Source of the DNA: a virus
Taxonomy: Duplodnaviria > Caudoviricetes
Reading direction: 5' to 3' (one strand)
IMG/VR virus record: IMGVR_UViG_3300044272_001842
Span: 1 to 57,464 of that record
Length of the DNA: 57,464 nt
The position numbers and the translations under genes were made by a program. The notes under the pieces were generated by a model, which saw only the letters and a program-made list of their open reading frames with translations, made no database searches and was not told where the DNA came from. Positions 13,514-57,464 of the stretch are shown in pieces (the stretch's first letter is position 1; each line of letters begins with the position of its first letter).

Positions 13514-14407
13514 ATGTTAGTAGAAAGTTTTTATAGCTGGATAAACGAACGGCATAATATATATTTACAAAGAGTGGAGGGGCTACCAGCACCGTGGACT
13601 GATGATCCTATATTAAAAGAGTATAAGTTTACTAATCCTTTCCGTGAAAACGATAGGGTAACTGTTTGGATGCGTAAAAATTGGACTGATGTACATAATA
13701 ATGCTCCTCATGGTGAAATTATATTTAATTGTTGTTTATTCCGCATGACTGGCACAAGCGAGTTTGCTGAAGAGCATGGTTGGGTATATGAAAATGAAGG
13801 CTGGGATGCTGAGCGCACTAAAGAAATAATAGAGCGTCGGTTAGCAAAAGGTTTACGAACTTTTACGGGAGCATATATAATTACTAATCAAGGTGTAAAA
13901 GCAAGAAAATCTGAGGTTGTAGTTGATAATTTTCTTAAGCCGATCTGGGAAAATAAGGACAAGGTGGCGGAAGTTGCTTGCCAAACCAATTCGCTCAAAA
14001 AAACCCACGAGGAGATGGCTAGGTATCGAGGGTGGGGAGGAGGAGGTTTTATGTCTTACGAAGTCGTTTCCGACCTCAACTACACACCTGTACTGGACAA
14101 GGCAGAAGACCGTTTTAGTTGGGCAAATGCAGGTCCAGGAGCAAAACGAGGATTAAATAGGATACATGGTAGAGACCTTAAAAAAGTTTTGCCGCAAGAT
14201 CAAGCAAACTTAGAGATGCATCATTTACTTAAATTAGCACCTCAACATATAGCAGACCATGTACCGCTCAAACAAGTAGATATGCGATGCATAGAGCATA
14301 GCTTATGTGAGTGGGATAAATACCAACGAGTATTTCTTAAGCAAGGTAGACCTAGAAGTAGGTTTACATTTACAGAAATTGTAGTGCCAGAAGGGAGAGT
14401 AATATAA
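13514..14407 (+). CDS. aGPT-Pplase1-type (HMUDK helical domain family) DNA base-modification enzyme
   Basis: ERHNIY...PWTDDPILKEYKFTNPFRENDRVT, FTGAYII, HhH-like GWGGGGFMSYEVVSDL, GPGAKRGL, IEHSLCEWDKY. Confidence 0.75.
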   Translation: MLVESFYSWINERHNIYLQRVEGLPAPWTDDPILKEYKFTNPFRENDRVTVWMRKNWTDVHNNAPHGEIIFNCCLFRMTGTSEFAEEHGWVYENEGWDAERTKEIIERRLAKGLRTFTGAYIITNQGVKARKSEVVVDNFLKPIWENKDKVAEVACQTNSLKKTHEEMARYRGWGGGGFMSYEVVSDLNYTPVLDKAEDRFSWANAGPGAKRGLNRIHGRDLKKVLPQDQANLEMHHLLKLAPQHIADHVPLKQVDMRCIEHSLCEWDKYQRVFLKQGRPRSRFTFTEIVVPEGRVI

Positions 14408-15192
14408 TGATACCTATTTATATACCTACTAGGGGAAGAATAAACAAACAAACCACATGGGAAAGTATAGGCTCAAAAGCTAGATCAATGGCTGTGTTAG
14501 TTTGCCCAGATAATGAAGTATCTACACATGAAAGTTATGGCAGGAAGACATTGAGCCGAGGTGATATAACAGGTATAAATAATGCACGACAGTTTATACT
14601 AAAACATGCGTTGGAGAACGAACATGATAAAATTATTATTTTGGATGACGATCTTATATTTGGTCGTCGCATATCTGACGTAGCACCTAGTCTACGTAAA
14701 ACCAAACCAGAAGAAATGCATGAGCTATTTGATATTATGAGTGAACGTTTAGATTCATATGTGCATGTTGGTGTAAGCCCAAGACAAATGAATGATAAAC
14801 ATTTTCCTGCTCGTTGGAAGGAATGTATGAGGCAAAATGCTGTTCATGGTATTCAACCAAAAGTATTAAAAAAGGAACATCTACGTTATGACACAGTAGA
14901 CCTCATGGAAGATTATTATATGACACTCAGTTTATTTAAACTAGGCTATCCTAATATTATGATTACTGACTGGACGTGGGATCAACGTGGTACATCAGGT
15001 GCTGTAGGAGGCTGTAGTTCGTACCGTAATGCTGAACTACAAGAACGTGCAAGTAAACAACTTGAAGCTATGTTTCCAGAACATGTGAAGGCTGTTAAAA
15101 AAGAAACTAAAACAGGTTGGGATAATATGAAAGTACGTTGGGATGTACGTGTACAATGGCGAAAGGCGGCAATGGATGGAAACTGTATCTAA
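14407..15192 (+). CDS. GT-A glycosyltransferase (TET-associated / base J glucosyltransferase-like family)
   Basis: IYIPTRGR N-terminus, IIILDDDL (DxD), MEDYYMTL, GGCS. Confidence 0.75.
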   Translation: MIPIYIPTRGRINKQTTWESIGSKARSMAVLVCPDNEVSTHESYGRKTLSRGDITGINNARQFILKHALENEHDKIIILDDDLIFGRRISDVAPSLRKTKPEEMHELFDIMSERLDSYVHVGVSPRQMNDKHFPARWKECMRQNAVHGIQPKVLKKEHLRYDTVDLMEDYYMTLSLFKLGYPNIMITDWTWDQRGTSGAVGGCSSYRNAELQERASKQLEAMFPEHVKAVKKETKTGWDNMKVRWDVRVQWRKAAMDGNCI

Positions 15193-16177
15193 TAACTATC
15201 AAGACCCACCTAACTCTATACAAGTAGAATTTGTTGAGGGCTGTAATTTAGCTTGTTCTTTTTGTGGTATACAGGCGATACGTGATAATGGTGCTGATGG
15301 TCCGAACGATATACACGGTAAAAAGTCTGGTCCATATAAAAACCTGACTATACAAACAGCCGAAGCTATTTGTGACCAAATCAGGGAGGCTAACTGGAAT
15401 CCTCGTATTGAGTTTGCCATGCACGGTGAGCCAACTATGCACCCTTTCTTCGTTGAGATGGTAGGCTTGTTTAGAAAAAAGTTACCAAAAACCTCTCTTA
15501 TGATGACGAGTAATGGAGGAGGGTTGTTAAAAGATACTGAGGAAACAGTCAATAAACTAATGGACGCAGGAATCAATGTTTTGTTTTTAGATAATTATGA
15601 ACGTATAAAAATAGTTGATAAAATTAAAGAACGGTACAATGGTCCGCACCCTGTTTACGAATACCCTAGTGATCGCCAAGCTAACCCACACCGTAGAAGA
15701 AGACATGATGATCATGATATAGTAGTTGGTATGGATCTTACACTCGCAACAAATGGCACTCATGCACAAGTAAGCAATCATGCTGGATCTGCTTTCCCAC
15801 TAAATTATAACCAATCAGGTAAACGATGTGCAAAACCTTTCCGTGAGTTAAGTATACGTTGGGATGGTAGTGTGGCTGTATGTTGTAACGATTGGATTGG
15901 ATGGTATAAGTGTGGTAATTTACATCAAACAAATTTATCGGATATATGGCAAGGTGATGCTTTCCATGCCGCACGTCAAAAATTGTATCACGGACAACGC
16001 AACTTCGGTCCGTGTAACGGTTGTGACAATGTAACACTTCGTAACGGTTTGTTACCAGACCGTATGGGTAGACAAAGTTTACCTGAGCCAGATGCACAAA
16101 CAGAAGAACATATACAAAAAGCTCTTGGCAATGGCACGTATACACCCAAAGTCAAAAAGCATTTTGACTTTATTTAA
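15176..16177 (+). CDS. Radical SAM enzyme with C-terminal SPASM/twitch domain
   Basis: CNLACSFC (CX3CX2C), HGEPTMHP, TSNG, CAKPF...DGSVAVCCND...GNL...PCNGC; likely start METVSN at 15176. Confidence 0.9.
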   Translation: METVSNNYQDPPNSIQVEFVEGCNLACSFCGIQAIRDNGADGPNDIHGKKSGPYKNLTIQTAEAICDQIREANWNPRIEFAMHGEPTMHPFFVEMVGLFRKKLPKTSLMMTSNGGGLLKDTEETVNKLMDAGINVLFLDNYERIKIVDKIKERYNGPHPVYEYPSDRQANPHRRRRHDDHDIVVGMDLTLATNGTHAQVSNHAGSAFPLNYNQSGKRCAKPFRELSIRWDGSVAVCCNDWIGWYKCGNLHQTNLSDIWQGDAFHAARQKLYHGQRNFGPCNGCDNVTLRNGLLPDRMGRQSLPEPDAQTEEHIQKALGNGTYTPKVKKHFDFI

Positions 16178-16234
16178 ACACCATACAGCCACTAGACGCT
16201 TGCTTTTAGTAGTTGTACACGTAATAATAAACTC

Positions 16235-16250
16235 AGCCGCTCGAGCGGCT
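16235..16250. promoter_or_regulatory. Perfect 16-bp palindrome just downstream of a sigma70-like promoter
   Basis: AGCCGCTCGAGCGGCT; TTGCTT at 16200 and an AT-rich -10-like box upstream. Confidence 0.55.
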
Positions 16251-16278
16251 TTAAAACCACATAGAAAGGCGGTAAAAA

Positions 16279-17283
16279 ATGGCAACATTTAATAGCACTA
16301 TTGTGAGGGGTGCTCATACTATCACAGCTAGAAATGTCAGTGATGCTCTCTGGCTTGCAAAACAAAAATTAGAAAATAGTGGTACAAAGGTTGAAACAAG
16401 AAATGGTAGGGCTATTGAGTTAAGAGAGCCTATAGCTATTGTATATAATCAACCTATGGAGCGAGTATTATTCTACCCTGAACGTGATGCTAACCCTATT
16501 TTCCATTTTATGGAAAGCTTATGGATGTTAGCAGGACGGCATGATGTTGAGTGGATTGCTAAGTTCAACAAACGTATGGCAGAGTATAGTGATAACGGTA
16601 AACAACTTCAAGGTGCGTATGGCTATAGATGGCGCAAATACTTTCATACCGATCAGTTAGTAAAAGTAATTTATAGGCTACGCACATACGAAAATGATAG
16701 ACGAACTGTTTTAACAATGTGGGATGCTGAGGAAGATTTGCGGTTGGATAATGATTGTAAAGATCATCCTTGTAACACTCATATATATTTTAGTATCCGT
16801 GATAGAACATTAGATATGACAGTATGCAATCGTAGTAATGATATGATATGGGGAGCGATGGGTGCTAATGCTGTGCATATGTCAATCTTACAAGAGTATG
16901 TAGCCGCTAGAGTCAATGCCAAAGTAGGTATCTATACTCAGTTTAGTAATAATCTACATGCCTATTTAGACACCCTCAAAACTTTAAAAAATATGCAACC
17001 TGATTATAATTCTTATGGGTCACGTGGTATTTATCCTTCACGCATCGTAACTAGAGCAACTTCCTTTATAGAAGAGCTAGAGTTGTTTATGGAAGACCCC
17101 ATGAAAAAACATCCATATAGCAATAAAATATTTCCAGAGTTAGCTCAACCTATGTGTAGAGTTTGGGAAGCTTGGAAACAAAAAGAAATATTTTTAGCAT
17201 TAGATTTATGTAAAGAAATAGTTCCTGATGATTGGCATATAGCTGTACATGAGTGGTTAGAAAGAAGAGTGAACAATGGATAA
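16279..17283 (+). CDS. Thymidylate-synthase-fold enzyme, probable dUMP hydroxymethylase
   Basis: RDANPIFHFMESLWMLAG, GAYGYRWR, catalytic PCN, RSNDMIWGAMGAN (Asn at the uracil-specificity position), NNLHAY. Confidence 0.82.
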   Translation: MATFNSTIVRGAHTITARNVSDALWLAKQKLENSGTKVETRNGRAIELREPIAIVYNQPMERVLFYPERDANPIFHFMESLWMLAGRHDVEWIAKFNKRMAEYSDNGKQLQGAYGYRWRKYFHTDQLVKVIYRLRTYENDRRTVLTMWDAEEDLRLDNDCKDHPCNTHIYFSIRDRTLDMTVCNRSNDMIWGAMGANAVHMSILQEYVAARVNAKVGIYTQFSNNLHAYLDTLKTLKNMQPDYNSYGSRGIYPSRIVTRATSFIEELELFMEDPMKKHPYSNKIFPELAQPMCRVWEAWKQKEIFLALDLCKEIVPDDWHIAVHEWLERRVNNG

Positions 17284-21371: not shown

Positions 21372-21613
21372 AACCTTTGTGGGAAATCTATAAGGTAAAA
21401 ACTACCACTAACGAAGTTCACTGGATATTAGATGGACAACTCGTTAAATCACCCATCGTATTTTATGGGTTAGAAAATTTACATATCTTCATGGAATCAT
21501 TTCATGAGATTAATAAAGTGCATACTCCGACTAAAGTCCGGTCGGGGGATGCATCAACACCAAAGCACCCATATGATAGGGATGATCAATATTGGGAGGA
21601 GACACAATCATGA
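21368..21613 (+). CDS. Hypothetical protein
   Basis: AAGGAG RBS; ATGA overlaps at both ends. Confidence 0.65.
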   Translation: MKPLWEIYKVKTTTNEVHWILDGQLVKSPIVFYGLENLHIFMESFHEINKVHTPTKVRSGDASTPKHPYDRDDQYWEETQS

Positions 21614-21939
21614 TGGATGGACACAAAAGATTAATGCTTGAAAAACAAAAACTTGATGAGCTTGCCGCTGAGTCTACAAGTATGAAAGACTTCGCTAGTA
21701 AGTTAGGTTTCACATATATAACTGCTAGGAATATTGCTGAGTTATACGGTGTGACCGTTCCGGATGGTAGAGTAGGTGTAACTAAAAGCAATCAAGTTGC
21801 CCGAAACGCAGATATTTATAATCTTAGACAAATTCATGGTTTGAGTTATTCTGCTATCGGTAAAAAATATGGTATTACCAGACAGCGAGCGCATGGTATT
21901 TATAAAGCAGAGCACAAAAAACTTGCACTCACCATGTAA
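21610..21939 (+). CDS. HTH DNA-binding protein (sigma70 region-4-like)
   Basis: GLSYSAIGKKYGITRQRAHGI. Confidence 0.7.
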   Translation: MMDGHKRLMLEKQKLDELAAESTSMKDFASKLGFTYITARNIAELYGVTVPDGRVGVTKSNQVARNADIYNLRQIHGLSYSAIGKKYGITRQRAHGIYKAEHKKLALTM

Positions 21940-24900: not shown

Positions 24901-25305
24901 ATGGGTTTAGATCAAAATGCTTTTATAGGCGTAATAACAGAAAAACGTACCGATCCAGAAACAGGACAAGAGTATGATAAAAAAATTATACAGGAAAGTT
25001 TCTATTGGCGCAAACATGCTCGCCTCCAAGAGTTTATGGAAGATCGGTGGGTGCAAAAAACAGGTAGGACAGCCGTAGAGTTAAACTGTGAAGATATGCG
25101 ACTTACCGAGGAAGATATTAACTTGCTAGAAAAAGCCATACTTGACGGCTACACCGAACATGTTAGTGAGGGTGGTATGTTCTATGGTCACCAATTCCAA
25201 GAGGAGTCGGTAAAAGAATATCGTGAGTATGATTTACAGTTTGTGGAAAGAGCTCGTACGGCAATCGCCGATGGTACACACGTCATATATCACTGTTGGT
25301 GGTAA
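24901..25305 (+). CDS. Conserved-type hypothetical phage protein
   Basis: MGLDQ...YWRKH..LQ...YHCWW pattern; AGGAGGT RBS. Confidence 0.75.
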   Translation: MGLDQNAFIGVITEKRTDPETGQEYDKKIIQESFYWRKHARLQEFMEDRWVQKTGRTAVELNCEDMRLTEEDINLLEKAILDGYTEHVSEGGMFYGHQFQEESVKEYREYDLQFVERARTAIADGTHVIYHCWW

Positions 25306-25320
25306 TCAGTTAAACCCCAA

Positions 25321-25354
25321 AGAGTCATGGTCTACGGATCATGGCTCTCTTTTT
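25321..25354 (+). terminator. Intrinsic terminator ending the early/replication block
   Basis: AGAGTCATGGTC-TACG-GATCATGGCTCT followed by a T run; cUACGg tetraloop. Confidence 0.8.
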
Positions 25355-25453
25355 AGTTTTATATATAGAGTAAGAATGAAATATTGAGTGAAGTGAAACA
25401 AAAGATATTACAATATCTGATATCTAATATCTGAGTATTCAAATATTTCAATA

Positions 25454-25480
25454 CTTTGACTGGCCGCGCGACATTTTACA
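25454..25480 (+). repeat. 27-bp element, inverted copy of 6123-6149, preceded by AATATCTGA repeats
   Basis: 24/27 identity; AATATCTGA at 25412 and 25426 (also at 6171). Confidence 0.85.
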
Positions 25481-25542
25481 CTCTTACTTTGTAATGAGTC
25501 GATTTTTGTTGTAGACTCTATTATAGAAAAGTAGAGTAAATT

Positions 25543-26073
25543 ATGCCGAAAGCAAAAGTCACACATAAAAACTCTTTGGAAGTCGTAGCAAACCCTCGTG
25601 TGGAAACAGGGCTAACTCCTAAACAGGAAAAGTTTGCTATGATTTATGCTACAGAAGACCTAACCCAAACTGAAGCCGCATTACGAGCAGGATACGCTGA
25701 AAGTAATGCCCATGCGATAGCAAGCCGAATGTTAAATGGACGGGACTACCCACAGGTATTAGAAAGAATACGTGTCATTAAAACAGAGTTACAACAAAAG
25801 TTTGAAGTTACTTTTGATGGGCATGTACGGAAACTTGCAGAGATAAGAGACCAAGCTATGCAGAACGGTAACTACTCAGCGGCAGTCACAGCTGAAAAAA
25901 GTAGAGGGCAAGCGGCAGGACTCTACATAGACCGTAAAGAAATACTTACAGGTAAGATAGACCAGATGTCCCGTGAAGAAGTTTTGGTAGAAATAAAACG
26001 TATACAAGAAGAGTTCCCACAGTTACGTGAAGCACTAAGCCCAGCGATTGAAGGCCATGTCAACGAAACCTGA
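25543..26073 (+). CDS. terS: Terminase small subunit
   Basis: LTPKQEKFA..Y......TEAALRAGY..S.A...ASRML HTH; AAVTAE..RG...GLYIDR. Confidence 0.85.
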   Translation: MPKAKVTHKNSLEVVANPRVETGLTPKQEKFAMIYATEDLTQTEAALRAGYAESNAHAIASRMLNGRDYPQVLERIRVIKTELQQKFEVTFDGHVRKLAEIRDQAMQNGNYSAAVTAEKSRGQAAGLYIDRKEILTGKIDQMSREEVLVEIKRIQEEFPQLREALSPAIEGHVNET

Positions 26074-26482
26074 AACTGATTTGTGGCATTCTATCAGGGA
26101 TGGGACAGCCTGTTTTGACGTGCATTGGACACGTGTAGAAGCATGGTCACTTCCTGGAGTACCTGATTTAAACGGATGTATGCAAGGATTGGACTTTTGG
26201 GTTGAACTTAAAGTTCTTACGACAAAGAGCGACAAGAAGTATCCTAAGTGGCGTCCTCACCAAATTGCTTGGCAGAGCTCAAGAACATCGGTTGGTGGAG
26301 TAGTTTGGAACTTGGTTCATCATCTTTCCTCCCACAGACTATTATTTTTGGATGGTCGGAACCTAGCAAAGAGATTGATGGAGGGAGATGAGGGAGTCTA
26401 CGATGGATGGATGGATTACCCGATGGATTATGATGGATGGCGAGCTGTACTAGAACAGGTGACATCACGGCCGAAGTCATAA
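26057..26482 (+). CDS. PD-(D/E)XK nuclease (VRR-NUC / Holliday junction resolvase-like)
   Basis: RVE....GVPDL.......FWVELK....RPHQIAW. Confidence 0.8.
   Translation: MSTKPETDLWHSIRDGTACFDVHWTRVEAWSLPGVPDLNGCMQGLDFWVELKVLTTKSDKKYPKWRPHQIAWQSSRTSVGGVVWNLVHHLSSHRLLFLDGRNLAKRLMEGDEGVYDGWMDYPMDYDGWRAVLEQVTSRPKS
26402..26417 (+). repeat. GATGGATGGATGGATT tract, copy 1
   Basis: Identical 16-mer at 27126-27141. Confidence 0.9.
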
Positions 26483-26544
26483 GACTTCTGGCACGAGGTC
26501 ATATGAAGTCAGCAAACAAAGTTATCATTATGACAACTTAGGTG

Positions 26545-26574
26545 TTTACATTGATATGGTAACTGTGGTATCGT
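26545..26574 (+). promoter_or_regulatory. Sigma70-like promoter of paralog A
   Basis: TTTACA-18-TATCGT with extended TG, followed by the GTGGCA-TG-TGCCAC hairpin. Confidence 0.55.
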
Positions 26575-26628
26575 TAAGTGTGGCATGTGCCACGTTAATC
26601 AACCAACGCTCGTAGAAAGGAGCTCATC

Positions 26629-27084
26629 ATGGCTAAATCAGCTGTTAAAAAAATCGCTACTACCGAAGTTACTTTTCAAGGTATTAAAGATATACCTGAG
26701 GATCGTAAAAAGTTGGGTGTCACTGTTGCTGACATCTTTAAGTTCGTGCAGGAAAATGCTGGTGGTAATCCCAATAATGTTGGTATACGTCCAGTCGCTA
26801 AACTGGTTGACCTTAAACAGGAGCTACCATTTCCTTTTGAAAGTAAGCGTACACTATATGAAGAAGACGGTGCTAAAAAAGCTAGGCTCCGTGGTCTTGT
26901 GGTGTGGCAGTTAATCAACTCTGGTACTAAGCCTATCACCCTTACTGATGTTGACAATGCACATAAGAAAATCAAAGCAAAGAAATATCACGCTTTGTTA
27001 GATGCTCTTAACGGTGGGCAGTCGCCATCAGCCAAAGCAACATGGGGAAATAATTATGTTGAGTTATACGTAATCCCAGCTTAA
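26629..27084 (+). CDS. Hypothetical protein, paralog A
   Basis: AGAAAGGAG RBS; own promoter and terminator; shares collinear motifs with 27454..27978. Confidence 0.85.
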   Translation: MAKSAVKKIATTEVTFQGIKDIPEDRKKLGVTVADIFKFVQENAGGNPNNVGIRPVAKLVDLKQELPFPFESKRTLYEEDGAKKARLRGLVVWQLINSGTKPITLTDVDNAHKKIKAKKYHALLDALNGGQSPSAKATWGNNYVELYVIPA

Positions 27085-27093
27085 CAATCACAA

Positions 27094-27125
27094 GGTGGGT
27101 GGCCGATGGTCACCCATTCTTTTTT
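27094..27125 (+). terminator. Intrinsic terminator after paralog A
   Basis: GGTGGGTGGCC-GAT-GGTCACCCATT followed by T6. Confidence 0.8.
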
Positions 27126-27160
27126 GATGGATGGATGGATTGATGATGAAAGATGATGAT
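27126..27160 (+). repeat. GA-dense GATG/GAT tract, copy 2
   Basis: GATGGATGGATGGATTGATGATGAAAGATGATGAT (10 GA in 35 nt). Confidence 0.9.
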
Positions 27161-27301
27161 TCATATATATGGGCATAGTCACATATATAGTCACCAAATA
27201 AAATCTTTTCTAATGAACTCAAAAGAACTCATACCTATATACAATTTAATATCCGGTGCTATGGTGGTTTTATAACTTAACTATTAACAAGGGAGTTAAT
27301 T

Positions 27302-27364
27302 ATGCTTATGAGCTTTTATTTGTTTAGTGTGATAGTAACAATATTTTTTATTACACTTTTTTAA
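27302..27364 (+). CDS. 20-aa hydrophobic peptide (not in ORF track)
   Basis: MLMSFYLFSVIVTIFFITLF with AAGGGAG RBS. Confidence 0.45.
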   Translation: MLMSFYLFSVIVTIFFITLF

Positions 27365-27372
27365 TTTAGGGG

Positions 27373-27403
27373 TTTACATTAATGTAAATATGTTTATTAT
27401 AAT
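27373..27403 (+). promoter_or_regulatory. Sigma70-like promoter of paralog B with a 16-bp palindrome over the -35 box
   Basis: TTTACATTAATGTAAA palindrome (27373-27388); TATTATAAT -10 region; TGTAGC/GCTACA hairpin at 27407-27424. Confidence 0.65.
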
Positions 27404-27453
27404 AAGTGTAGCAATACCGCTACATTCAACTTTAACCAAAATGGGGTTTAATT

Positions 27454-27978
27454 ATGGTTAATACTTCTAAAAAAGCCGCACTTGCTTTCCAAGGTGCAAA
27501 TGGTATCAAACAGCCTGTAGCCGCTCAAGCTATGGTTGCATTTATCAATGCTAACGGTGGTCAAGCTAACTTAGCTTTATTGCTCAACGCTAATGCCGTT
27601 AAAAACGGTGTTCTGTTTGGTGGTGGCAAGCTATGGTCAGCTATGCAAGTTAGTTCTAAAACTAACGCTATCAGCGCACGTGGTCAAATACTTTGGGCAT
27701 GTGTTAACGGCTTGCCTACAGGTCAAGCGGTCACTAAAGCTAACATTGGTAAGCTTATTAATACTAATGTTCCAACAAGCTTTAAACCTATACCGCTAAC
27801 ACAAATACAGCAAGCTCACGCTGTGTATGGTGCTGGTATTACACATAATACTAGCGTTTCCGCTGGCGGTACAGCTAACCAAAATGCTTTACTTGCTATA
27901 CTTAATGGCGGTTTTGGTATTAGTAACCAAACTGTTAGCACGTATGGTAACGCATACGGCACTATTGTGGCGGTATAA
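27454..27978 (+). CDS. Hypothetical protein, paralog B; no Asp or Glu, gene free of the GA dinucleotide
   Basis: 174-aa ORF with promoter, GGGGT RBS and terminator; similar to 26629..27084. Confidence 0.85.
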   Translation: MVNTSKKAALAFQGANGIKQPVAAQAMVAFINANGGQANLALLLNANAVKNGVLFGGGKLWSAMQVSSKTNAISARGQILWACVNGLPTGQAVTKANIGKLINTNVPTSFKPIPLTQIQQAHAVYGAGITHNTSVSAGGTANQNALLAILNGGFGISNQTVSTYGNAYGTIVAV

Positions 27979-27986
27979 CCCCAACA

Positions 27987-28023
27987 GTTAGCCAAGTGCC
28001 AAAAAGGTACTTGGCTAACCTTT
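27987..28023 (+). terminator. Stem-loop / probable terminator after paralog B
   Basis: GTTAGCCAAGTGCC-AAAAA-GGTACTTGGCTAAC, short T run. Confidence 0.7.
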
Positions 28024-28215
28024 AAAACGCTAGTACGGCTGTAAAAAATGGCAACCCCCCCTCAAATGCGACGAACATGTACAAGCACAGCGCAGTACAC
28101 GGTTTTCCAGAAATCGTTACCACTCAGATAATTTTTGGACATACCCACCCCCCTTTTTTGAAATATGAGTCATAGGTTCATTGCCCTTTGAAAATTTTTA
28201 TATTATTCTGATACT

Positions 28216-28401
28216 ATGAAGGATGATTTAGTTAATTTTGGTGTAAGCCGTTCGAGTAATGGCGAAGTATCTTTATCATTTTATTATACGAATGGTGCAG
28301 AGCGACATTTTGTTTTAGGTGATGATGATATTATATCTTTAATAGCGGCTTTATTAGCGGCACGTAATGAAGAGATGGGTGAATGGCAGACGTACCATTA
28401 A
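28216..28401 (+). CDS. Hypothetical protein
   Basis: 61-aa ORF overlapping the terL start. Confidence 0.5.
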   Translation: MKDDLVNFGVSRSSNGEVSLSFYYTNGAERHFVLGDDDIISLIAALLAARNEEMGEWQTYH

Positions 28402-29852
28402 ACATTCCCGAAGATGTGTTGCGCCAATATGCAATGTTATTAGAGAAGCAGAAAAAACTTATCTCGAGTGATCGCGCACGAGCAGACTTTATGTCGTATA
28501 CTAAAAGTGTATGGCCTGAGTTTATTGAGGGTAAGCACCATAAAATTATGGGCGAGAAGTTTAATGCCTTGTCAAAAGGCAAAATTAAACGGTTGATTGT
28601 GAATATGCCGCCCAGACATACAAAGTCAGAGTTTGCCAGTTATTTATTACCCAGTTGGTTGATGGGACTTAATCCAAAGTTAAAGATAATACAGGCTACG
28701 CATACAGGTGAGTTAGCCGTGCGTTTTGGACGTAAGGTACGTAATTTGATGAACAATGCCGATTACTCTCAGATCTTTCCAGAAGTAAAATTACGGCAAG
28801 ATAGTAGTGCGGCAGGAAGATGGGAGACCCACGCAGGAGGAGAATATTTTGCGGCTGGTGTGGGCGGAGCAATAACAGGACGTGGTGCAGACCTTATGAT
28901 AATTGACGACCCACATTCTGAACAAGATGCATTATCTCCAGCGGCATTAGAAAATGCGTATGAGTGGTATACTAGTGGTCCACGGCAACGACTCCAACCT
29001 GGAGGTGCGATTGTTATTGTGATGACACGTTGGTCAGAAATAGATCTAACGGGAAAATTATTAAAACAGCAATCACGTGATTTGTTAGCAGATCAGTGGG
29101 AAGTAGTTGAGTTTCCAGCTTTAATAGATGATGATAAAGTATTATGGCCGGAGTTTTGGCAGAAAGAAGAATTATTAAAAGTGAAAGCTTCTTTGTCGGT
29201 AGGCAAGTGGGAAGCACAATGGCAACAAAACCCTACATCAGAAACGAGTGCTATACTTAAACGTGATTGGTGGCGGCAGTGGGAAAAAGAAGATATACCA
29301 CCTTTACAGTATGTCATGCAAAGTTATGATACAGCATTTAGTAAACAGACAAATGCTGATTATAGTGCGATAACAACATGGGGTGTTTTTTACCCAGAAG
29401 AAGGTGGTCCACCAAATATTATTTTAGTTGATGCACGACGTGGACGGTGGGACTTTCCAGAACTACGACGTATTGCGTTAGAAGAATATGAGTATTGGGA
29501 TCCAGAATGTGTCCTGATTGAGGCAAAAGCGAGTGGTATGCCCCTTACCCAAGAACTAAGAAGTATGGGTATACCTGTGCAAAATTATAGCCCAAGTAGA
29601 GGTAATGATAAATTTACTCGTGTGAACTCCATTGCGCCATTACTAGAAAGTGGGTTAGTATGGGCTCCAGATACTCGGTGGGCAGAAGAAGTTATTGAAG
29701 AGTGTGCCGCTTTTCCAAGTGGTGAGAATGATGACTTTGTAGATACATGCACACAGGCTCTAAGAAGATTTCGCGAAGGCGGTTTTATACAACACCCAGA
29801 GGATTATGATGACCATGTTGATGCACCCCCAAGACAAGCAGTATATTACTAA
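28383..29852 (+). CDS. terL: Terminase large subunit
   Basis: MPPRHTKS (Walker A), GRGADLMIIDDP (Walker B), VMTRW, SYDTAF, IEAKASG, NDDFVD nuclease motif. Confidence 0.95.
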   Translation: MADVPLNIPEDVLRQYAMLLEKQKKLISSDRARADFMSYTKSVWPEFIEGKHHKIMGEKFNALSKGKIKRLIVNMPPRHTKSEFASYLLPSWLMGLNPKLKIIQATHTGELAVRFGRKVRNLMNNADYSQIFPEVKLRQDSSAAGRWETHAGGEYFAAGVGGAITGRGADLMIIDDPHSEQDALSPAALENAYEWYTSGPRQRLQPGGAIVIVMTRWSEIDLTGKLLKQQSRDLLADQWEVVEFPALIDDDKVLWPEFWQKEELLKVKASLSVGKWEAQWQQNPTSETSAILKRDWWRQWEKEDIPPLQYVMQSYDTAFSKQTNADYSAITTWGVFYPEEGGPPNIILVDARRGRWDFPELRRIALEEYEYWDPECVLIEAKASGMPLTQELRSMGIPVQNYSPSRGNDKFTRVNSIAPLLESGLVWAPDTRWAEEVIEECAAFPSGENDDFVDTCTQALRRFREGGFIQHPEDYDDHVDAPPRQAVYY

Positions 29853-37149: not shown

Positions 37150-37605
37150 ATGGCTACAACAACTTTTCAGGGCATAGTACGCTCTTACGGTGGTGGAATA
37201 AAAGGAACACATACTCCAACACCTGTTACACAAAGTGTTCAAATTTCTTTTGACCCTACAGCATCATCTGCTACTAATGTAAGAATCGGAACTTCAGCAA
37301 CTGCTGGAGAAACTCTGACCTTACCAGCAGGAGCTTTACCTATTTCGTTTATGACAATAGGTGGTTCAGCTGGTGGTACTAATCCTACAATTGATATTGG
37401 CTCATCAGGTGATCCAGATGGTTTATTCAACGAAGTGGATTGTGATACCAAAGGCTCATTAAAAGGTGCAGATGGAGCACTTGCGGTTGCTGGTGGATTA
37501 GCCGCCAGTATTACAGTTACGGCTAGTGTGGGCTCTTCTGCCGCGACGAGTGGAACTGTTACTGGTGTTCTTACTTATGCGATGGCTAATAACAGCGTAG
37601 AATAA
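37150..37605 (+). CDS. Putative virion structural protein
   Basis: MATTTFQGIVRS; Gly/Thr/Ala-rich. Confidence 0.6.
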   Translation: MATTTFQGIVRSYGGGIKGTHTPTPVTQSVQISFDPTASSATNVRIGTSATAGETLTLPAGALPISFMTIGGSAGGTNPTIDIGSSGDPDGLFNEVDCDTKGSLKGADGALAVAGGLAASITVTASVGSSAATSGTVTGVLTYAMANNSVE

Positions 37606-39301: not shown

Positions 39302-39975
39302 GTTATTTGATAAGCAACATCCCGCATTTTAAATGTTGGGTACGCAAAGAATTTACTCATAACCACAGTGATTATCATGGAGAGTATATACACGCAATGG
39401 CTATAGCAGTTAATACTATACCCGATAGATGTTTGAGTTTCCAAGTGGTGTTTACTGGTTATGAAGCAGATGAAGAAGGTGTGGAAAATATTCATGGCGG
39501 TGCGATGTGGGCTAGATTACCCATCACAGCTTTAGTAGCAGATGTGCCATTAGAAGATTGGCCGGAACGTATGGTAACACACCATGCACAACCTTGGGAT
39601 TGTAGTTCTCACTATCATTCTGTCGTAAAACTTGATAGAGTAAGTTCTAGTCCTTGGATTTGTAAAATAGATGGTGAATTTTATACGGCAAAATATATGT
39701 TTACAGTAGATTACACAGAAACAGATATAGCGGATGATCCTGCACAACATAAACAAAGTCATGTTTTAGAGTTGACTAATGCAGGAGAATGGACAGGTAA
39801 TATTGTTGCATTACCTAATAACAGGGTGAGGGCTACTTCTCCTGCACTTTGGGAAACTGGGGAGGGTGCTCCAGATTTTCTACCTAGTCAATGGATACAT
39901 AATGCTGAAAGTGATGAAAGTTATATGGATCCAAGTATTACTTTTGATAACTTATATGCTAAAAAGGAGAAATAG
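39298..39975 (+). CDS. Hypothetical phage protein
   Basis: 225-aa ORF; GGAMWARLPI, QPWDCSS, ALPNNR. Confidence 0.75.
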   Translation: MSYLISNIPHFKCWVRKEFTHNHSDYHGEYIHAMAIAVNTIPDRCLSFQVVFTGYEADEEGVENIHGGAMWARLPITALVADVPLEDWPERMVTHHAQPWDCSSHYHSVVKLDRVSSSPWICKIDGEFYTAKYMFTVDYTETDIADDPAQHKQSHVLELTNAGEWTGNIVALPNNRVRATSPALWETGEGAPDFLPSQWIHNAESDESYMDPSITFDNLYAKKEK

Positions 39976-39976
39976 T

Positions 39977-40201
39977 ATGGCTATGCATAATAAAAAAGGG
40001 AAGGCAAATGGAGGTCGCAAAAAAATGATGGGTGGCGGCAACATGAAGAAAAAAGGAATGGCTAAAGGCGGTAGAGCTAAAATGATGGGTGGCGGTAATA
40101 TGAAGAAGAAAGGTCGCTCTAAAATGATGGGTGGTGGTAGCATGAATATGCGTAAAAAAGGTATGTCAAAAGGTGGTGCAGTAAGAGGTCCAAATAGTTA
40201 A
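39977..40201 (+). CDS. Low-complexity Lys/Gly/Met protein with KMMGGG repeats
   Basis: Three KMMGGG units; AAGGAG RBS; no acidic residues. Confidence 0.7.
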   Translation: MAMHNKKGKANGGRKKMMGGGNMKKKGMAKGGRAKMMGGGNMKKKGRSKMMGGGSMNMRKKGMSKGGAVRGPNS

Positions 40202-55561: not shown

Positions 55562-57464
55562 TGAATAATATGAAAGATCAAGCTTTAGCAAGACCAATGT
55601 TTGCACAAATGGCACAGTCTATAGATAATTTAGAACAGCAAATTGATAATGCTGAAGATTACGCAGGAATTATGAATGCTATACGTGGTGATGAAGCTAC
55701 TGTGGCTGAACGTCGTCAAGAACTTGGTGGGTTAGTTGGTAAAAAAGATGCTAATAAAACACCTGAGTCTGTACTAACTTTAATACAACCTACTCTTGGT
55801 ATTATGGAAACAGTGCAAGAAGGTGGTATATCAGCTGATGGTGTAGGTATTACTAGTGGTTTGACTGAACAAGCTCCAGGACAAGCAGAAGCTAAAGCAC
55901 GTATTGCTATGGGTGAACAACCTGTGAGGCGAGCAAGTGGTTCTACAGATGCAGAAGATATCACAACAAAATTATCTGGTTTGACTTCTCTTATACCTGA
56001 ACCTCAAGGATACGAATCTTATCTCAAACAATATCAAGATGTGCTTGGTGATACACCTACAGGTTATGAATTTAATCCAGTAATATCAGGATTAAATCTC
56101 GCCTCCGCAATAGCTAATGCACCCCGAGGAGAATTATTATCAACGATTTTGAGTAAAGAAACTATAAAAGATGTTGGTGATCCTATATTACAAATGGCAC
56201 AAGCTAAAAGTAAACAAGATCAAGAATTAAAACTTAAAGCATTAGATGCGGAAACTGCCGCTAAAACGAGTGCCGCAGAACAAAAATCTGACTTATTAAA
56301 AACAGCACTACCTAAATTATTAGAAGCTGATGATATTACTGTTCAAACAGATGGTACAGGGCAACCTTTTATTGTCAATAAAACCTCAGGTGAAACTACT
56401 CCATTTGGAAAACCCACTCCAACTGAGTATACAACATTCACAACTACTGATGGCACAGTATATAATTTTAATAAACAAACAGGTGAATATAAAGCGACAG
56501 ATGTTGCTAATGCTCCTGCTCGTAGTGCGATTAAATTAGAAGATGGTCGTACTGCTTTAATAGATCTTACAGCTGATGATCCTACAAAAAATATACAGTA
56601 TTTAGGCACAGAAAAAGTTGATGATAAATATGAATTTAAAACCGTAGGCGGTGGAGTGCTTGTTAGTAATAAACAAACTGGTTCAACTGAATTCAAAACA
56701 GTTGAGGGTATGCCTATTGATTTTGAGGTTTATGGTAGTGCTGAAAGTGGTTTTTTCAAAGTAGATAAAAACGGCACTGTTTCACCACTTACAGCTGATG
56801 AAACAGGTGTGACAATACCAGATACCGATTTTCAAAGAGAAATAAAACAATTTAAAGAGGTGCAAGCTAAGTTGTTGGGCATGGATCCAACAGATGAAAA
56901 TTACGCTGAAACATTGCTTGAGTTTCAGGCGTTTTCAGAAAAATACACACCAGTTAAAGATTCTGAGTTTGAAAGAATAGCAAACGCTAATGCTGAAAGA
57001 ATTTACAAAAACACAGAGGGTACAGAGCAAGATAAGCAAGCGGCTAAAAATGAGTATTTAGCTAAAACATATAACGACTTTGTCGTAGCAAAATCAACAG
57101 TCCAACAAAATTATAACCCTAATGAAGCACTTGATAAAGAGTTTGCAACTATATTTGGTAAACAAGTAGCAGAAATAGCAAAGGCGTCAGAAAATAGTCA
57201 ACAACTTGCTCAGTTATCGCAGTTAGCTCTTCAAGCGTCAGAAAATTATAATACTGGAGCTTTTGCTGAAGCTCGTTTAAATATTACCAAAATGGCTAAA
57301 TCTCTTGGTATAGTAGATACGATGCGATCTGCACTAGGAGAAGATAGGTTCAACAGGTTCTTTCAGGGAGATTTAGATAATGTAGCTTCTGGTGAATTAT
57401 TACAATCAGTTGGATCACAATTTGCTATTATGATGGCAGAGGGATTTCCTGGAAATTTAAATTC
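55561..57464 (+). CDS. N-terminal part of a putative internal virion protein continuing at position 1 (missing from ORF track)
   Basis: ATG at 55561 overlaps the previous stop; frame reads through to the contig end and matches the frame of 94..618. Confidence 0.8.
   Translation, partial: MNNMKDQALARPMFAQMAQSIDNLEQQIDNAEDYAGIMNAIRGDEATVAERRQELGGLVGKKDANKTPESVLTLIQPTLGIMETVQEGGISADGVGITSGLTEQAPGQAEAKARIAMGEQPVRRASGSTDAEDITTKLSGLTSLIPEPQGYESYLKQYQDVLGDTPTGYEFNPVISGLNLASAIANAPRGELLSTILSKETIKDVGDPILQMAQAKSKQDQELKLKALDAETAAKTSAAEQKSDLLKTALPKLLEADDITVQTDGTGQPFIVNKTSGETTPFGKPTPTEYTTFTTTDGTVYNFNKQTGEYKATDVANAPARSAIKLEDGRTALIDLTADDPTKNIQYLGTEKVDDKYEFKTVGGGVLVSNKQTGSTEFKTVEGMPIDFEVYGSAESGFFKVDKNGTVSPLTADETGVTIPDTDFQREIKQFKEVQAKLLGMDPTDENYAETLLEFQAFSEKYTPVKDSEFERIANANAERIYKNTEGTEQDKQAAKNEYLAKTYNDFVVAKSTVQQNYNPNEALDKEFATIFGKQVAEIAKASENSQQLAQLSQLALQASENYNTGAFAEARLNITKMAKSLGIVDTMRSALGEDRFNRFFQGDLDNVASGELLQSVGSQFAIMMAEGFPGNLN
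57337..57462. repeat. Terminal overlap, identical to 1-126
   Basis: Direct comparison. Confidence 0.95.

Follow-up and report, generated by a model that had tools for sequence, protein, structure and literature searches.

A GA-free island spanning one of two paralogous genes in a phage genome that carries thymine hypermodification genes

The window analyzed here, a stretch of 57,464 nucleotides from the virus record IMGVR_UViG_3300044272_001842 (Duplodnaviria; Caudoviricetes), contains two related genes on the plus strand, A and B, the second of which encodes neither aspartate nor glutamate (Table 1). The phage is marine; in 18 seawater runs, a fraction of 0.95 to 0.99 of the words sampled from the window is present. 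A first-pass annotation had placed both open reading frames at these coordinates and described B as acid free, and both points are borne out. Each copy is also self-contained, as had been proposed, with its own sigma-70-like site (TTTACA at 26545 and 27373), leader hairpin, and 3' hairpin. Terminators had been claimed for both copies; a hairpin follows each gene, with a T run in A and no canonical one in B. The promoter of A contains GA and TC, a point in which the promoter of B differs. The 49-nt leader of A is predicted to fold at -14.8 kcal/mol (z -2.3), and relatives have leader hairpins equivalent to that of B, built from other sequences. Ribosome sites of the GGGG type are found in most of the relatives' cassettes shown, with GGAG or AGGT in some. 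ORF A carries 19 GA dinucleotides, just 3 of them out of frame, and its product has 16 acidic and 24 basic residues. As for a known RNA family, the lone match, at 22.9 bits, fell short of the gathering score (60) and was rejected.

Table 1. Features of the A and B units, the GA-free island, and the modification module
Feature	Position	Strand	Details
HMUDK (5-hmdU DNA kinase)	13514..14407	+	PF18723, 1.7e-50, at 13514-14404
TAGT-like glycosyltransferase	14407..15192	+	PF20691, 4.5e-18
Radical SAM/SPASM enzyme	15143..16177	+	PF04055/PF13186
ThyA-like (thymidylate-synthase-like) enzyme	16279..17283	+	PF00303, 4.6e-22; phrog_5131, 1.9e-103
Thymine hypermodification module	13514..17283	+	Pfam/PHROGs; proposed source of the constraint
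Promoter of A, sigma-70-like	26545..26574	+	TTTACA, 18 nt, TATCGT; TG before -10
5' leader hairpin of A	26580..26593	+	GUGGC....GCCAC
ORF A	26629..27084	+	151 aa; 8 Asp, 8 Glu; AGGAG ribosome site
Intrinsic terminator of A	27094..27128	+	11-bp stem, T run; hairpin 27094-27118
Hydrophobic mini-ORF	27302..27364	+	20 codons, MLMSFYLFSVIVTIFFITLF; partly within island
GA-free island	27332..28070	+	739 nt without GA on the + strand, any frame
Promoter of B, sigma-70-like	27373..27400	+	TTTACA, 16 nt, TATTAT; matches 10/12
5' leader hairpin of B	27406..27425	+	GUGUAGC......GCUACAU
Ribosome-binding site of B	27443..27446	+	GGGG; Shine-Dalgarno spelled without GA
ORF B	27454..27978	+	174 aa; 0 Asp, 0 Glu; 0 GA, 17 TC
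3' hairpin of B	27987..28019	+	14-bp stem, -24.1 kcal/mol, z -6.5; no canonical T run
CAACCCCCCCT motif	28052..28062	+	3' edge marker of island

ORF B lacks acidic residues because the whole island around it is without GA in any frame; all four Asp and Glu codons start with GA, which makes the loss of both residues a by-product. The island takes in the promoter, 5' hairpin, ribosome site, reading frame, and 3' hairpin of B, and its untranslated parts are equally GA free. The second-longest GA-free run in the 57-kb genome measures 113 nt, and 46.9 GA would be expected in the island where none is seen. Genome-wide avoidance of GA was not found, as the dinucleotide occupies 6.35% of positions (per-gene mean, 6.6 per 100 nt) and has an observed/expected ratio of 0.99 in the flanks of 16 relatives. 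Out of frame, ORF B has no GA against about 12 expected from its own amino acid sequence and the genome's codon usage, the lowest value in 5000 resamplings being 2. Chance and base composition are ruled out as causes of the island by the length of the next run, the expected count, and the flank frequencies. The constraint is nucleotide level, on the dinucleotide GA, and not amino acid level. The earlier idea that one copy was recoded under a constraint is thus retained, whereas its placement of that constraint on acidic residues is not, as GA, and in most relatives also TC, is missing in all frames and from untranslated DNA.

The purge is deep and conserved among relatives. Pooled over 16 islands (12,361 nt), neither GA nor TC occurs, compared with 7.2% GA and 4.0% TC in the flanks, and other di- and trinucleotides are not depleted. 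Avoidance of a longer restriction site is ruled out, as only trinucleotides containing GA or TC are depleted. Both words are absent from the B gene in 41 of 60 related loci, so that what is missing is the duplex step GA/TC. In one relative, L001, the flanks match the window at ~95% identity, yet between them every TC is gone through synonymous and codon-junction choices. The CAACCCCCCCT motif also marks the 3' edge of most of the relatives' islands shown (it is missing from L005 and L027), and in L001, as in other relatives, the GA/TC-free island takes in the MLMSFYLFSVIVTIFFITLF mini-ORF. Selection on B is purifying (dN/dS of 0.07 to 0.21 in nine of nine pairs), with dS values of 0.65 to 4, and selection for the purge has been long-lasting and active.

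Could selection for an acid-free protein, for reasons of charge, protease resistance, or escape from Asp/Glu modification, have come first, with the nucleotide pattern following? Down to the detection limit, full-length B-family proteins all have at most one Asp or Glu, and protein B is strongly basic (9 Lys and 1 Arg), both of which would suit such selection. However, the purge also covers out-of-frame GA, GA in the untranslated leader, ribosome site, and 3' hairpin, and TC whatever its frame. Moreover, in four relatives (G016, G017, G022, and G023) the few residual GA are exactly the retained Asp and Glu codons; the protein therefore resists the purge and does not drive it. Protein-level selection is highly improbable, and an amino-acid-level cause is contradicted by the out-of-frame and pooled-island counts.

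The paralogy of A and B, which the first-pass annotation proposed from collinear blocks, is significant in pairwise and profile comparisons. BLASTP aligns the two with 21 identities in 64 positions (E of 7e-5 in a single comparison), and profile-profile alignment with hhalign, using 15 homologs of A and 24 of B, gives 127 collinear columns (probability 65%, E of 6e-5). A bridging sequence, P0061, is matched by the B profile with an E of 6.5e-5 in a search of 1.84 billion representatives and by the A profile with a probability of 96.6% (E of 5e-10); searches of viral_contigs and metagenome_contigs did not find it. An alignment of closer members, used as a query, brought back mostly contigs that were already in the set. 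The A profile also matches the recoded copies in G016 to G025 (HMM E of 1e-7 to 1e-15). These sequence comparisons make A and B true paralogs, with P0061 as the link between them. A tree of 30 twin proteins leaves their branching unresolved, and the recoding of the twin copy may have had a single origin. Homologs of ORF A are found in 47 of the 60 loci, the remaining 13 containing at most 1155 nt upstream of B. The tandem arrangement described earlier holds in the window but not always, as g26048 sits between A and B in one group of relatives and A lies on the opposite strand in L058. In relatives bearing the 5-hmdU DNA kinase, a normal and a recoded copy directly upstream of terL form a recurrent layout.

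The modification genes that had been suspected are present (Table 1), and their co-occurrence with the island is evident. HMUDK is 33 to 36% identical to its homologs in YuA and Sonora; the ThyA-like match fits both a dUMP hydroxymethylase, which would supply 5-hmdUTP, and a methylase, two activities that domain searches do not separate. All five long contigs bearing the island have HMUDK, the module is present in nine of nine contigs tested, and the island adjoins terL in 13 of 15 near-complete HMUDK genomes. In the kinase-less sister clade, neither the island nor an A/B gene was found at 80 loci, and neither HMUDK nor a ThyA-like gene was found in five long contigs. The island is associated with kinase-bearing genomes, and essentially one phylogenetic contrast lies behind this association. 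Among 80 HMUDK-anchored loci, a sample drawn solely from the same marine lineage, no second island lies within 10 kb of the kinase (maximum GA-free run, 242 nt). Modification of G in a GA context, through 7-deazaguanine, is suggested for Pa5oct in excerpts of PMC12191111; in the window, no Pfam domain of the DpdA, QueC, QueD, or QueE type was detected among 75 scanned ORFs of at least 70 aa.

The explanation that we prefer, and to which we give slightly less than an even chance, is that avoidance of TC, the presumed context of the phage's own thymine hypermodification, keeps the cassette as ordinary DNA on which host RNA polymerase can work at the start of infection. Phage DNA would be made with 5-hydroxymethyl-dU, a subset of which would be hypermodified after replication via the 5-hmdU DNA kinase, and from the purge we infer that the subset modified in this lineage is T followed by C. 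B would be a recoded twin of A whose entire expression cassette has a template strand without 5'-TC-3', with neither strand carrying it in most relatives; lacking the TC step, the cassette would be plain DNA amid a decorated genome. On the incoming, fully modified chromosome, host polymerase could initiate on this "pioneer" unit, with its near-consensus promoter, stabilizing 5' hairpin, and 3' hairpin, and read through it. The normal twin A would be used later, once new, not-yet-hypermodified DNA exists. No ORF was identified as a phage RNA polymerase in Pfam and PHROGs scans, so transcription must rely on the host enzyme. Assembled contigs from two metatranscriptome runs are short and fall in terS, terL, and the A-B spacer, leaving B uncovered; such contigs cannot rank expression.

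Precedents exist for the components of this explanation. M6 and YuA (Pseudomonas), ViI (Salmonella), phiW-14 (Delftia), and Pbunavirus F8/14-1 resemble the present genome in combining a 5-hmdU DNA kinase and a thymidylate-synthase-like enzyme with downstream enzymes, while the combination of TAGT with a radical SAM/SPASM enzyme belongs to this genome and sets it apart from M6 and ViI. In excerpts of the papers on such phages (PMC6449724, PMC12191111, and PMC8989533), thymines are modified solely in TG or TC context; here, modification is predicted from the genes. More specifically, the excerpts report that 5-hmdU is converted "in sequence-specific contexts" (PMC8989533), that restriction-resistant sites in M6, ViI, and phiW-14 share TG/TC, with the kinase credited (PMC6449724), and that sugar-type thymine hypermodification in Pbunavirus occurs at TG (PMC12191111). 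A phage T-dioxygenase with an NTC preference is described in part of PMC13229309, and in part of PMC4838386 bacterial RNA polymerase is blocked by bulky major-groove groups, probably at initiation. A gene-sized context-free stretch is not described in the excerpts of the three 5-hmdU hypermodification papers, and a full-text literature search of one library's papers found none describing such word-free islands.

Several observations count against the TC-context explanation. GA density is normal in every other gene, early-needed replication genes among them, so modification of the template cannot be a complete barrier. Two kinase-bearing relatives lack the island, and their second copies are ordinary: that of G011 has 12 acidic residues, 17 GA, and 24 TC, and that of G019 has 8 acidic residues, 11 GA, and 23 TC. 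A scan of two cultured kinase phages, covering all of YuA and the first 50 kb of Sonora, turned up no island free of any di- or trinucleotide, and a sub-clade without TAGT and the radical SAM enzyme still has islands. By comparison, HTVC027P (first 50 kb), in which a kinase is not annotated, has no word-free island either.

The grading of the purge by strand bears on what reads the word. Each of the 60 loci has just 0 to 2 GA on the coding strand, equivalent to TC on the template strand. At 13 loci, and in the window, the constraint on coding-strand TC is fully lifted, with 8 to 27 instances in tolerant loci. Such grading fits an effect on the strand that polymerase reads. In the TC-tolerant loci, leaders contain 8 TC in 770 nt compared with 106 in 3651 nt of ORF, a weak hint of additional purging of promoter DNA from lineages that are not independent; gene content of the modification module shows no difference between TC-tolerant and TC-free relatives.

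The same grading can be turned around, as the universal constraint sits on the mRNA-sense strand. An mRNA without GA, and mostly also without UC, might escape a dinucleotide-specific endoribonuclease, be it a host toxin, a HEPN-type abortive-infection nuclease, or a phage shut-off RNase, so that the cassette product would still be made while other mRNAs are destroyed. GA and UC are among the dinucleotides preferred by some HEPN RNases. The ribosome site too avoids GA, the 5'-terminal hairpin and strong 3' hairpin look built for mRNA stability, and the TC-free part begins at approximately the transcription start in three lineages, whose last TC falls within the promoter spacer immediately ahead of the -10 element. 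The patchy loss of the purge, in G011, G019, and the TC-tolerant loci, would fit a host-dependent agent. We nevertheless consider RNA-level immunity fairly unlikely. It leaves unexplained why the second purged word is the exact reverse complement of the first, it makes a coincidence of the link to thymine modification genes, and the phage's other mRNAs are all rich in GA. To our knowledge, no RNase cuts at every GA, and none emerged from this analysis.

Purging of both strands in most lineages is what evasion of a host factor that senses the duplex word would predict. The island might be unmodified and thus unseen or uncut by modification-dependent nucleases or sensors while it expresses an inhibitor, or a host nuclease, nickase, or TC-specific deaminase might read TC itself. 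Excerpts of PMC12191111 describe early attack on hypermodified phage DNA by nucleases, together with phage-encoded inhibitors that plaquing requires. Being self-contained, the cassette would still work if it survived as a fragment, the purge is patchy among relatives that share the kinase, and five IMG/VR contigs stop 20 to 40 nt past the island, a hint of a boundary there, either physical or arising from assembly. Still, loci with 8 to 27 coding-strand TC would keep a mark on one strand, visible to a duplex sensor, and cuts elsewhere in the genome would end the infection anyway, except where the island is first to enter. If a deaminase worked on DNA exposed by transcription, coding-strand TC should be purged first, the opposite of what the window shows. 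PADLOC models match neither A nor B. DNA-level evasion seems quite unlikely. Exhaustive TC-to-TT hypermutation of transcription-exposed DNA is ruled out, as the strand order is wrong and the protein is under purifying selection.

An extension of the TC-context explanation, possible but doubtful in our estimation, is that phages that decorate TC keep a plain-DNA pioneer cassette whose A/B product licenses use of the modified genome. The hypermodified incoming chromosome would be a poor template, or a target, until that product is made, and the protein might adapt host RNA polymerase to modified DNA or disarm a modification-sensing defense, the duplicated gene having been recoded at the price of two amino acids. 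If so, the purge exposes the modification's sequence context straight from the genome sequence. The proposed role of B would resemble that of the END nuclease inhibitors, which in excerpts of PMC12191111 represent an early-made protein that hypermodified phages need against a defense that senses modified DNA; a motif-free state of the inhibitor genes is not reported there.

Two further comparisons place the cassette among known phage strategies. The T7 gene 0.3 (ocr) behind host promoters and the first-step-transfer region of T5 are first-entering early regions with anti-defense genes. The B cassette is like them in being small and self-contained, with a strong host-type promoter, and in apparently being meant to work before the rest; they are special by early entry, whereas it is special by one missing dinucleotide. 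T7 Ocr is an acidic DNA mimic and the B product is the opposite, a basic protein; an Ocr-like acidic surface was found in neither twin, judging from the composition of A and B. Restriction-site avoidance in phage genomes is likewise selection against a short DNA word. There the sites are 4 to 8 nt, whereas the island word is 2 nt, and the island purge differs in being absolute but local (~0.7 to 1 kb, with the rest of the genome at normal frequency), in costing the protein two amino acids, and in being graded by strand.

If the TC-context explanation is true, the island represents a new way for DNA chemistry to shape coding sequence, with one two-letter step forbidden across a gene unit and a protein adapted to the absence of two of the 20 amino acids. 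It would permit sequence-only prediction of hypermodification context in uncultured phages, would make the handling of hypermodified DNA by the host and its polymerase a testable question, and would mark a small protein family, together with a mini membrane peptide, as the phage's first needs in the cell.

What the A/B protein might do is addressed by models and distant matches. Pfam and PHROGs gave no usable match for the function of either protein, and the fold search suggested at first pass did not deliver, with no usable match for A/B in PDB, BFVD, ESM Atlas, or VIA-align. Specifically, the A profile had no usable match among PDB sequences, and Foldseek with A against PDB and BFVD returned nothing at E of 0.001 or below. 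AF2 models have pLDDT values of 84 (A) and 76.5 (B), and helices and strands follow one another in the same order in both. A wide VIA-align search with B reached a weak best Z of 3.6, and the weak matches at Z of 2 to 3 include several winged-helix-type domains (MCM C terminus, Fur family, and RRE). Together with the basic charge, these winged-helix-like matches suggest that the A/B protein possibly binds nucleic acid.

ORF B, the acid-free twin of ORF A, lies within a 739-nt stretch of the window (27332-28070, + strand) that holds no GA in any frame, takes in the promoter, leader hairpin, ribosome site, the ORF itself and the 3' hairpin, and would be expected to contain ~47 GA. The genome-wide GA frequency of the window is 6.35%, and its second-longest GA-free run is 113 nt. 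The ribosome site inside this island is GGGG, with AGGAG preceding A. When the synonymous codons of B were resampled according to window codon usage with the amino acid sequence held fixed (5000 trials), out-of-frame GA averaged 11.9 and never fell below 2; none is observed. As all codons for Asp and Glu begin with GA, B lacks these residues because it lacks the word, and not the reverse. TC in the window's B is near its neutral expectation (17 versus 18.1). Elsewhere in the window, a 111-codon GTG-start ORF (39866-40201), which overlaps its neighbors and is probably not a gene, has no Asp or Glu yet carries GA at 6.8 per 100 nt, exclusively out of frame, which shows that a frame can be acid free without being GA free. 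Out-of-frame GA is also scarce in ORF A (3 versus 10.4 expected, P 0.002; 2 to 7 in the A homologs of 14 relatives), where TC is abundant (22 versus 14.7 expected), and the capsid gene has a milder GA deficit (15 versus 24.3 expected). The deficits of A and the capsid gene may reflect codon bias linked to high expression or a weaker version of the island pressure.

Positions of the twin genes and of associated features (window coordinates unless a locus or genome is named)
Feature	Position	Remarks
HMUDK (5-hmdU DNA kinase)	13514-14407	thymine-modification module
TAGT-like glycosyltransferase	14407-15192	thymine-modification module
Radical SAM/SPASM	15143-16177	thymine-modification module
Thymidylate-synthase-like gene	16279-17283	thymine-modification module
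terS	25543-26073	
ORF A	26629-27084	151 aa, 8 Asp + 8 Glu
Mini-ORF, window version	27302-27364	MLMSFYLFSVIVTIFFITLF; has gained GA
ORF B	27454-27978	174 aa, 0 Asp, 0 Glu
terL	28383-29852	
Mini-ORF, related locus L006	3690-3990	
Mini-ORF, kinase-bearing genome G016	about 37340-37400	

The first-pass annotation had read A and B as tandem paralogs, and their similarity is borne out by BLASTP (E 7e-5) and by profile-profile comparison (127 collinear columns, E 6e-5). The two are bridged by a protein, P0061, that the B profile picked out of 1.84 billion representatives and that scored 96.6% (E 5e-10) against the A profile. Each twin also has, as claimed, its own promoter-like site (TTTACA-type), a hairpin at the 5' end of the predicted RNA and a 3' hairpin. 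Both proteins are basic, and confident AF2 models (pLDDT 84 for A and 76.5 for B) place secondary-structure elements in the same order; the only fold matches from structure searches are weak and winged-helix-like. Recoded copies outside the window's sub-clade are A-like by HMM, which makes A and B the ends of one continuum, and a tree of 30 twins does not resolve the number of recoding origins. B is a genuine protein-coding gene, with dN/dS of 0.07 to 0.21 in 9/9 pairs at dS of 0.65 to 4, so the purge has been kept up through saturating synonymous change.

Relatives of B share this composition. A word-indexed search yielded 40 homologs, with identity down to 42%, of which 32 have no Asp or Glu and 8 have 1 to 6, and no more than 24 representative clusters came out of an exhaustive profile search; leaving aside P0062, a spurious repeat-protein hit, every full-length one has 0 to 1 such residue. 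Over the gene part matching B, GA is absent from 48 of 60 related IMG/VR loci and occurs once or twice in 12, while TC is absent from 41 loci, every one of them also GA free, and occurs 1 to 3 times in 6 and 8 to 27 times in 13. Loci lacking both words have a GA+TC-free stretch of 620 to 970 nt, versus a longest stretch of 36 to 120 nt elsewhere in the same loci. Sixteen such islands, pooled to 12,361 nt, contain 0 GA and 0 TC, with 7.2% GA and 4.0% TC in the flanks and no depletion of any other di- or trinucleotide. Selection at the protein level for an acid-free B is contradicted by these pooled islands together with the purged out-of-frame GA of B. Full-text literature searches of main articles gave no description of such word-free islands. 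In one related locus, L001, the flanks are ~95% identical to those of the window and the gene has 0 TC versus 17, with differences that are either synonymous or alternatives at codon junctions (for example ATC/ATT, GGT-CAA/GGG-CAA and GTT-CTG/GTT-TTA). Across 27240-28110, B dS between the two is 0.76 despite this flank identity and 100% identical TerL proteins, which suggests that the island either evolves faster or was exchanged between lineages.

We also examined the whole sequences of 15 genomes, near complete and from the window's broad lineage, that were picked solely for carrying the kinase; an island's score is the number of word occurrences expected in a run as long as the island. A GA- and/or TC-free stretch lies directly upstream of terL in 13 of them, clear (score at least 30) in nine (G012-14 and G020-25) and weaker in four (G015-18; score 20 to 27), where it is near the top background runs but coincides with the recoded gene; G011 and G019 have no island there. 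In G016, G017, G022 and G023, the leftover GA are exactly the kept Asp/Glu codons.

Acidic residues and word counts in the twin copies
Copy	D+E	GA	TC
Normal, 17 ORFs including G011 second copy	11-18	17-29	13-32
Recoded, 12 genomes (G012-G014, G016-G018, G020-G025)	0-3	0-3	0-6
Recoded, window	0	0	17
Second copy, G019	8	11	23
Second copy, G011	12	17	24

The kinase is found in 5/5 long contigs with an island and the four-gene modification module in 9/9 contigs tested; TAGT and radical SAM genes are limited to the window's sub-clade, and islands exist without these genes. By tblastn, G011 and G015-G025 lack TAGT/radical SAM homologs and have ~1.4 kb of other genes between the HMUDK and ThyA-like genes; the thymine adduct made through the shared kinase in this sub-clade is probably a different one. 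In the sister clade, closest by terL to Pelagibacter phage HTVC027P, neither an island nor an A/B gene occurs in any of 80 loci (longest GA-free run, 184 nt), and 0/5 long contigs have the kinase or ThyA-like gene. In essence, the association amounts to a single phylogenetic contrast, and the kinase clade itself holds two exceptions. No word-free island is present in the cultured kinase phages YuA and Sonora (first 50 kb of the latter).

That a word and its reverse complement are both purged points to duplex DNA. Passages in the literature describe a dinucleotide context, T then G or C, for 5-hmdU-kinase-dependent hypermodification (PMC6449724), a TG context in Pbunavirus (PMC12191111), 5-hmdU conversion in "sequence-specific contexts" (PMC8989533) and a preference for NTC by a phage T-dioxygenase (PMC13229309). 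Given the both-strand purge and the published T-then-G/C context, the island is best read as DNA that escapes a putative TC-context thymine modification. Against this reading, G011 and G019 lack the purge, and GA density is normal in every other gene, early replication genes included. An alternative is that a GA-cutting RNase cannot attack the cassette mRNA, as the sense-strand bias of the purge, the stabilizing hairpins and the patchy distribution would favor, but this leaves unexplained both the complementary second word and the link with modification genes. Evasion of defense, in which unmodified DNA goes unseen by nucleases that depend on modification (for instance the END nucleases of PMC12191111), is attractive, but lineages with TC retained on one strand are difficult to reconcile with it unless the island is first to enter the cell.

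Under escape from modification, the grading of the purge by strand fits an effect on the strand read by the polymerase: template-strand TC is tolerated at most at 2 sites, or at 3 retained acidic codons, and coding-strand TC is tolerated freely in some lineages. Bacterial RNAP is described in PMC4838386 as blocked in vitro by bulky major-groove groups, probably at initiation, and PMC11550810 reports that uracil modifications are mildly positive for T7 RNAP if on the non-template strand, and vary in effect if on the template strand. The near-consensus promoter and RNA end hairpins suggest that the cassette would be a unit for strong expression from the infecting chromosome, with the normal twin A perhaps serving later. 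Pfam and PHROGs scans named no phage RNA polymerase among the window ORFs. A 115-aa protein (21592-21939) that weakly resembles sigma-70 region 4/late transcriptional activators (PHROG 836 E 1.2e-3; Pfam E 3.9e-4, short of the cut-off) is a candidate late-gene regulator.

The window, a complete 57,464-nt phage contig, has structural genes of podophage type (Pam3-like proteins and an SU10-like portal and adaptor), and HTVC027P is its closest named phage, linked only via terL at 66% nucleotide identity. Its ends repeat over ~126 nt (1-126 and 57337-57462), the pattern expected from assembly of a genome that is circular or terminally redundant. Seawater metagenomes contain its sequence; run X5, not flagged as the source, has a contig that spans 25000-28093 with zero differences.

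Upstream of B, islands of relatives encode small hydrophobic peptides in one or two ORFs; these mini-ORFs, of ~19 to 60 residues with GGGG- or AAGGG-type ribosome sites, precede the recoded gene in several sub-clades. Most relatives' islands shown stop just past a CCCCCC(T) motif (window 28052-62). Between island and terL lies a conserved array (window 28052-28170; L006, L011, L030, L044 and L056; G016-G025) comprising, in order, the CCCCCC(T) run, GAGA or ACGA, an inverted repeat, a TTTTGGACA box and another run of C. The repeat arms co-vary (TGTAC..GTACA in the window, TGTATA..TATACA in L011), and the array may act in packaging or as a late promoter or operator. Five IMG/VR contigs (L017, L018, L019, L054 and L055; two of 21.9 and 35.7 kb) stop 20 to 40 nt past the island 3' edge, and at 28064-28093 a run X5 Logan contig is interrupted, where run X1 reads through; such ends could reflect either the physical terminus of the genome or an assembly that broke off at the C run.
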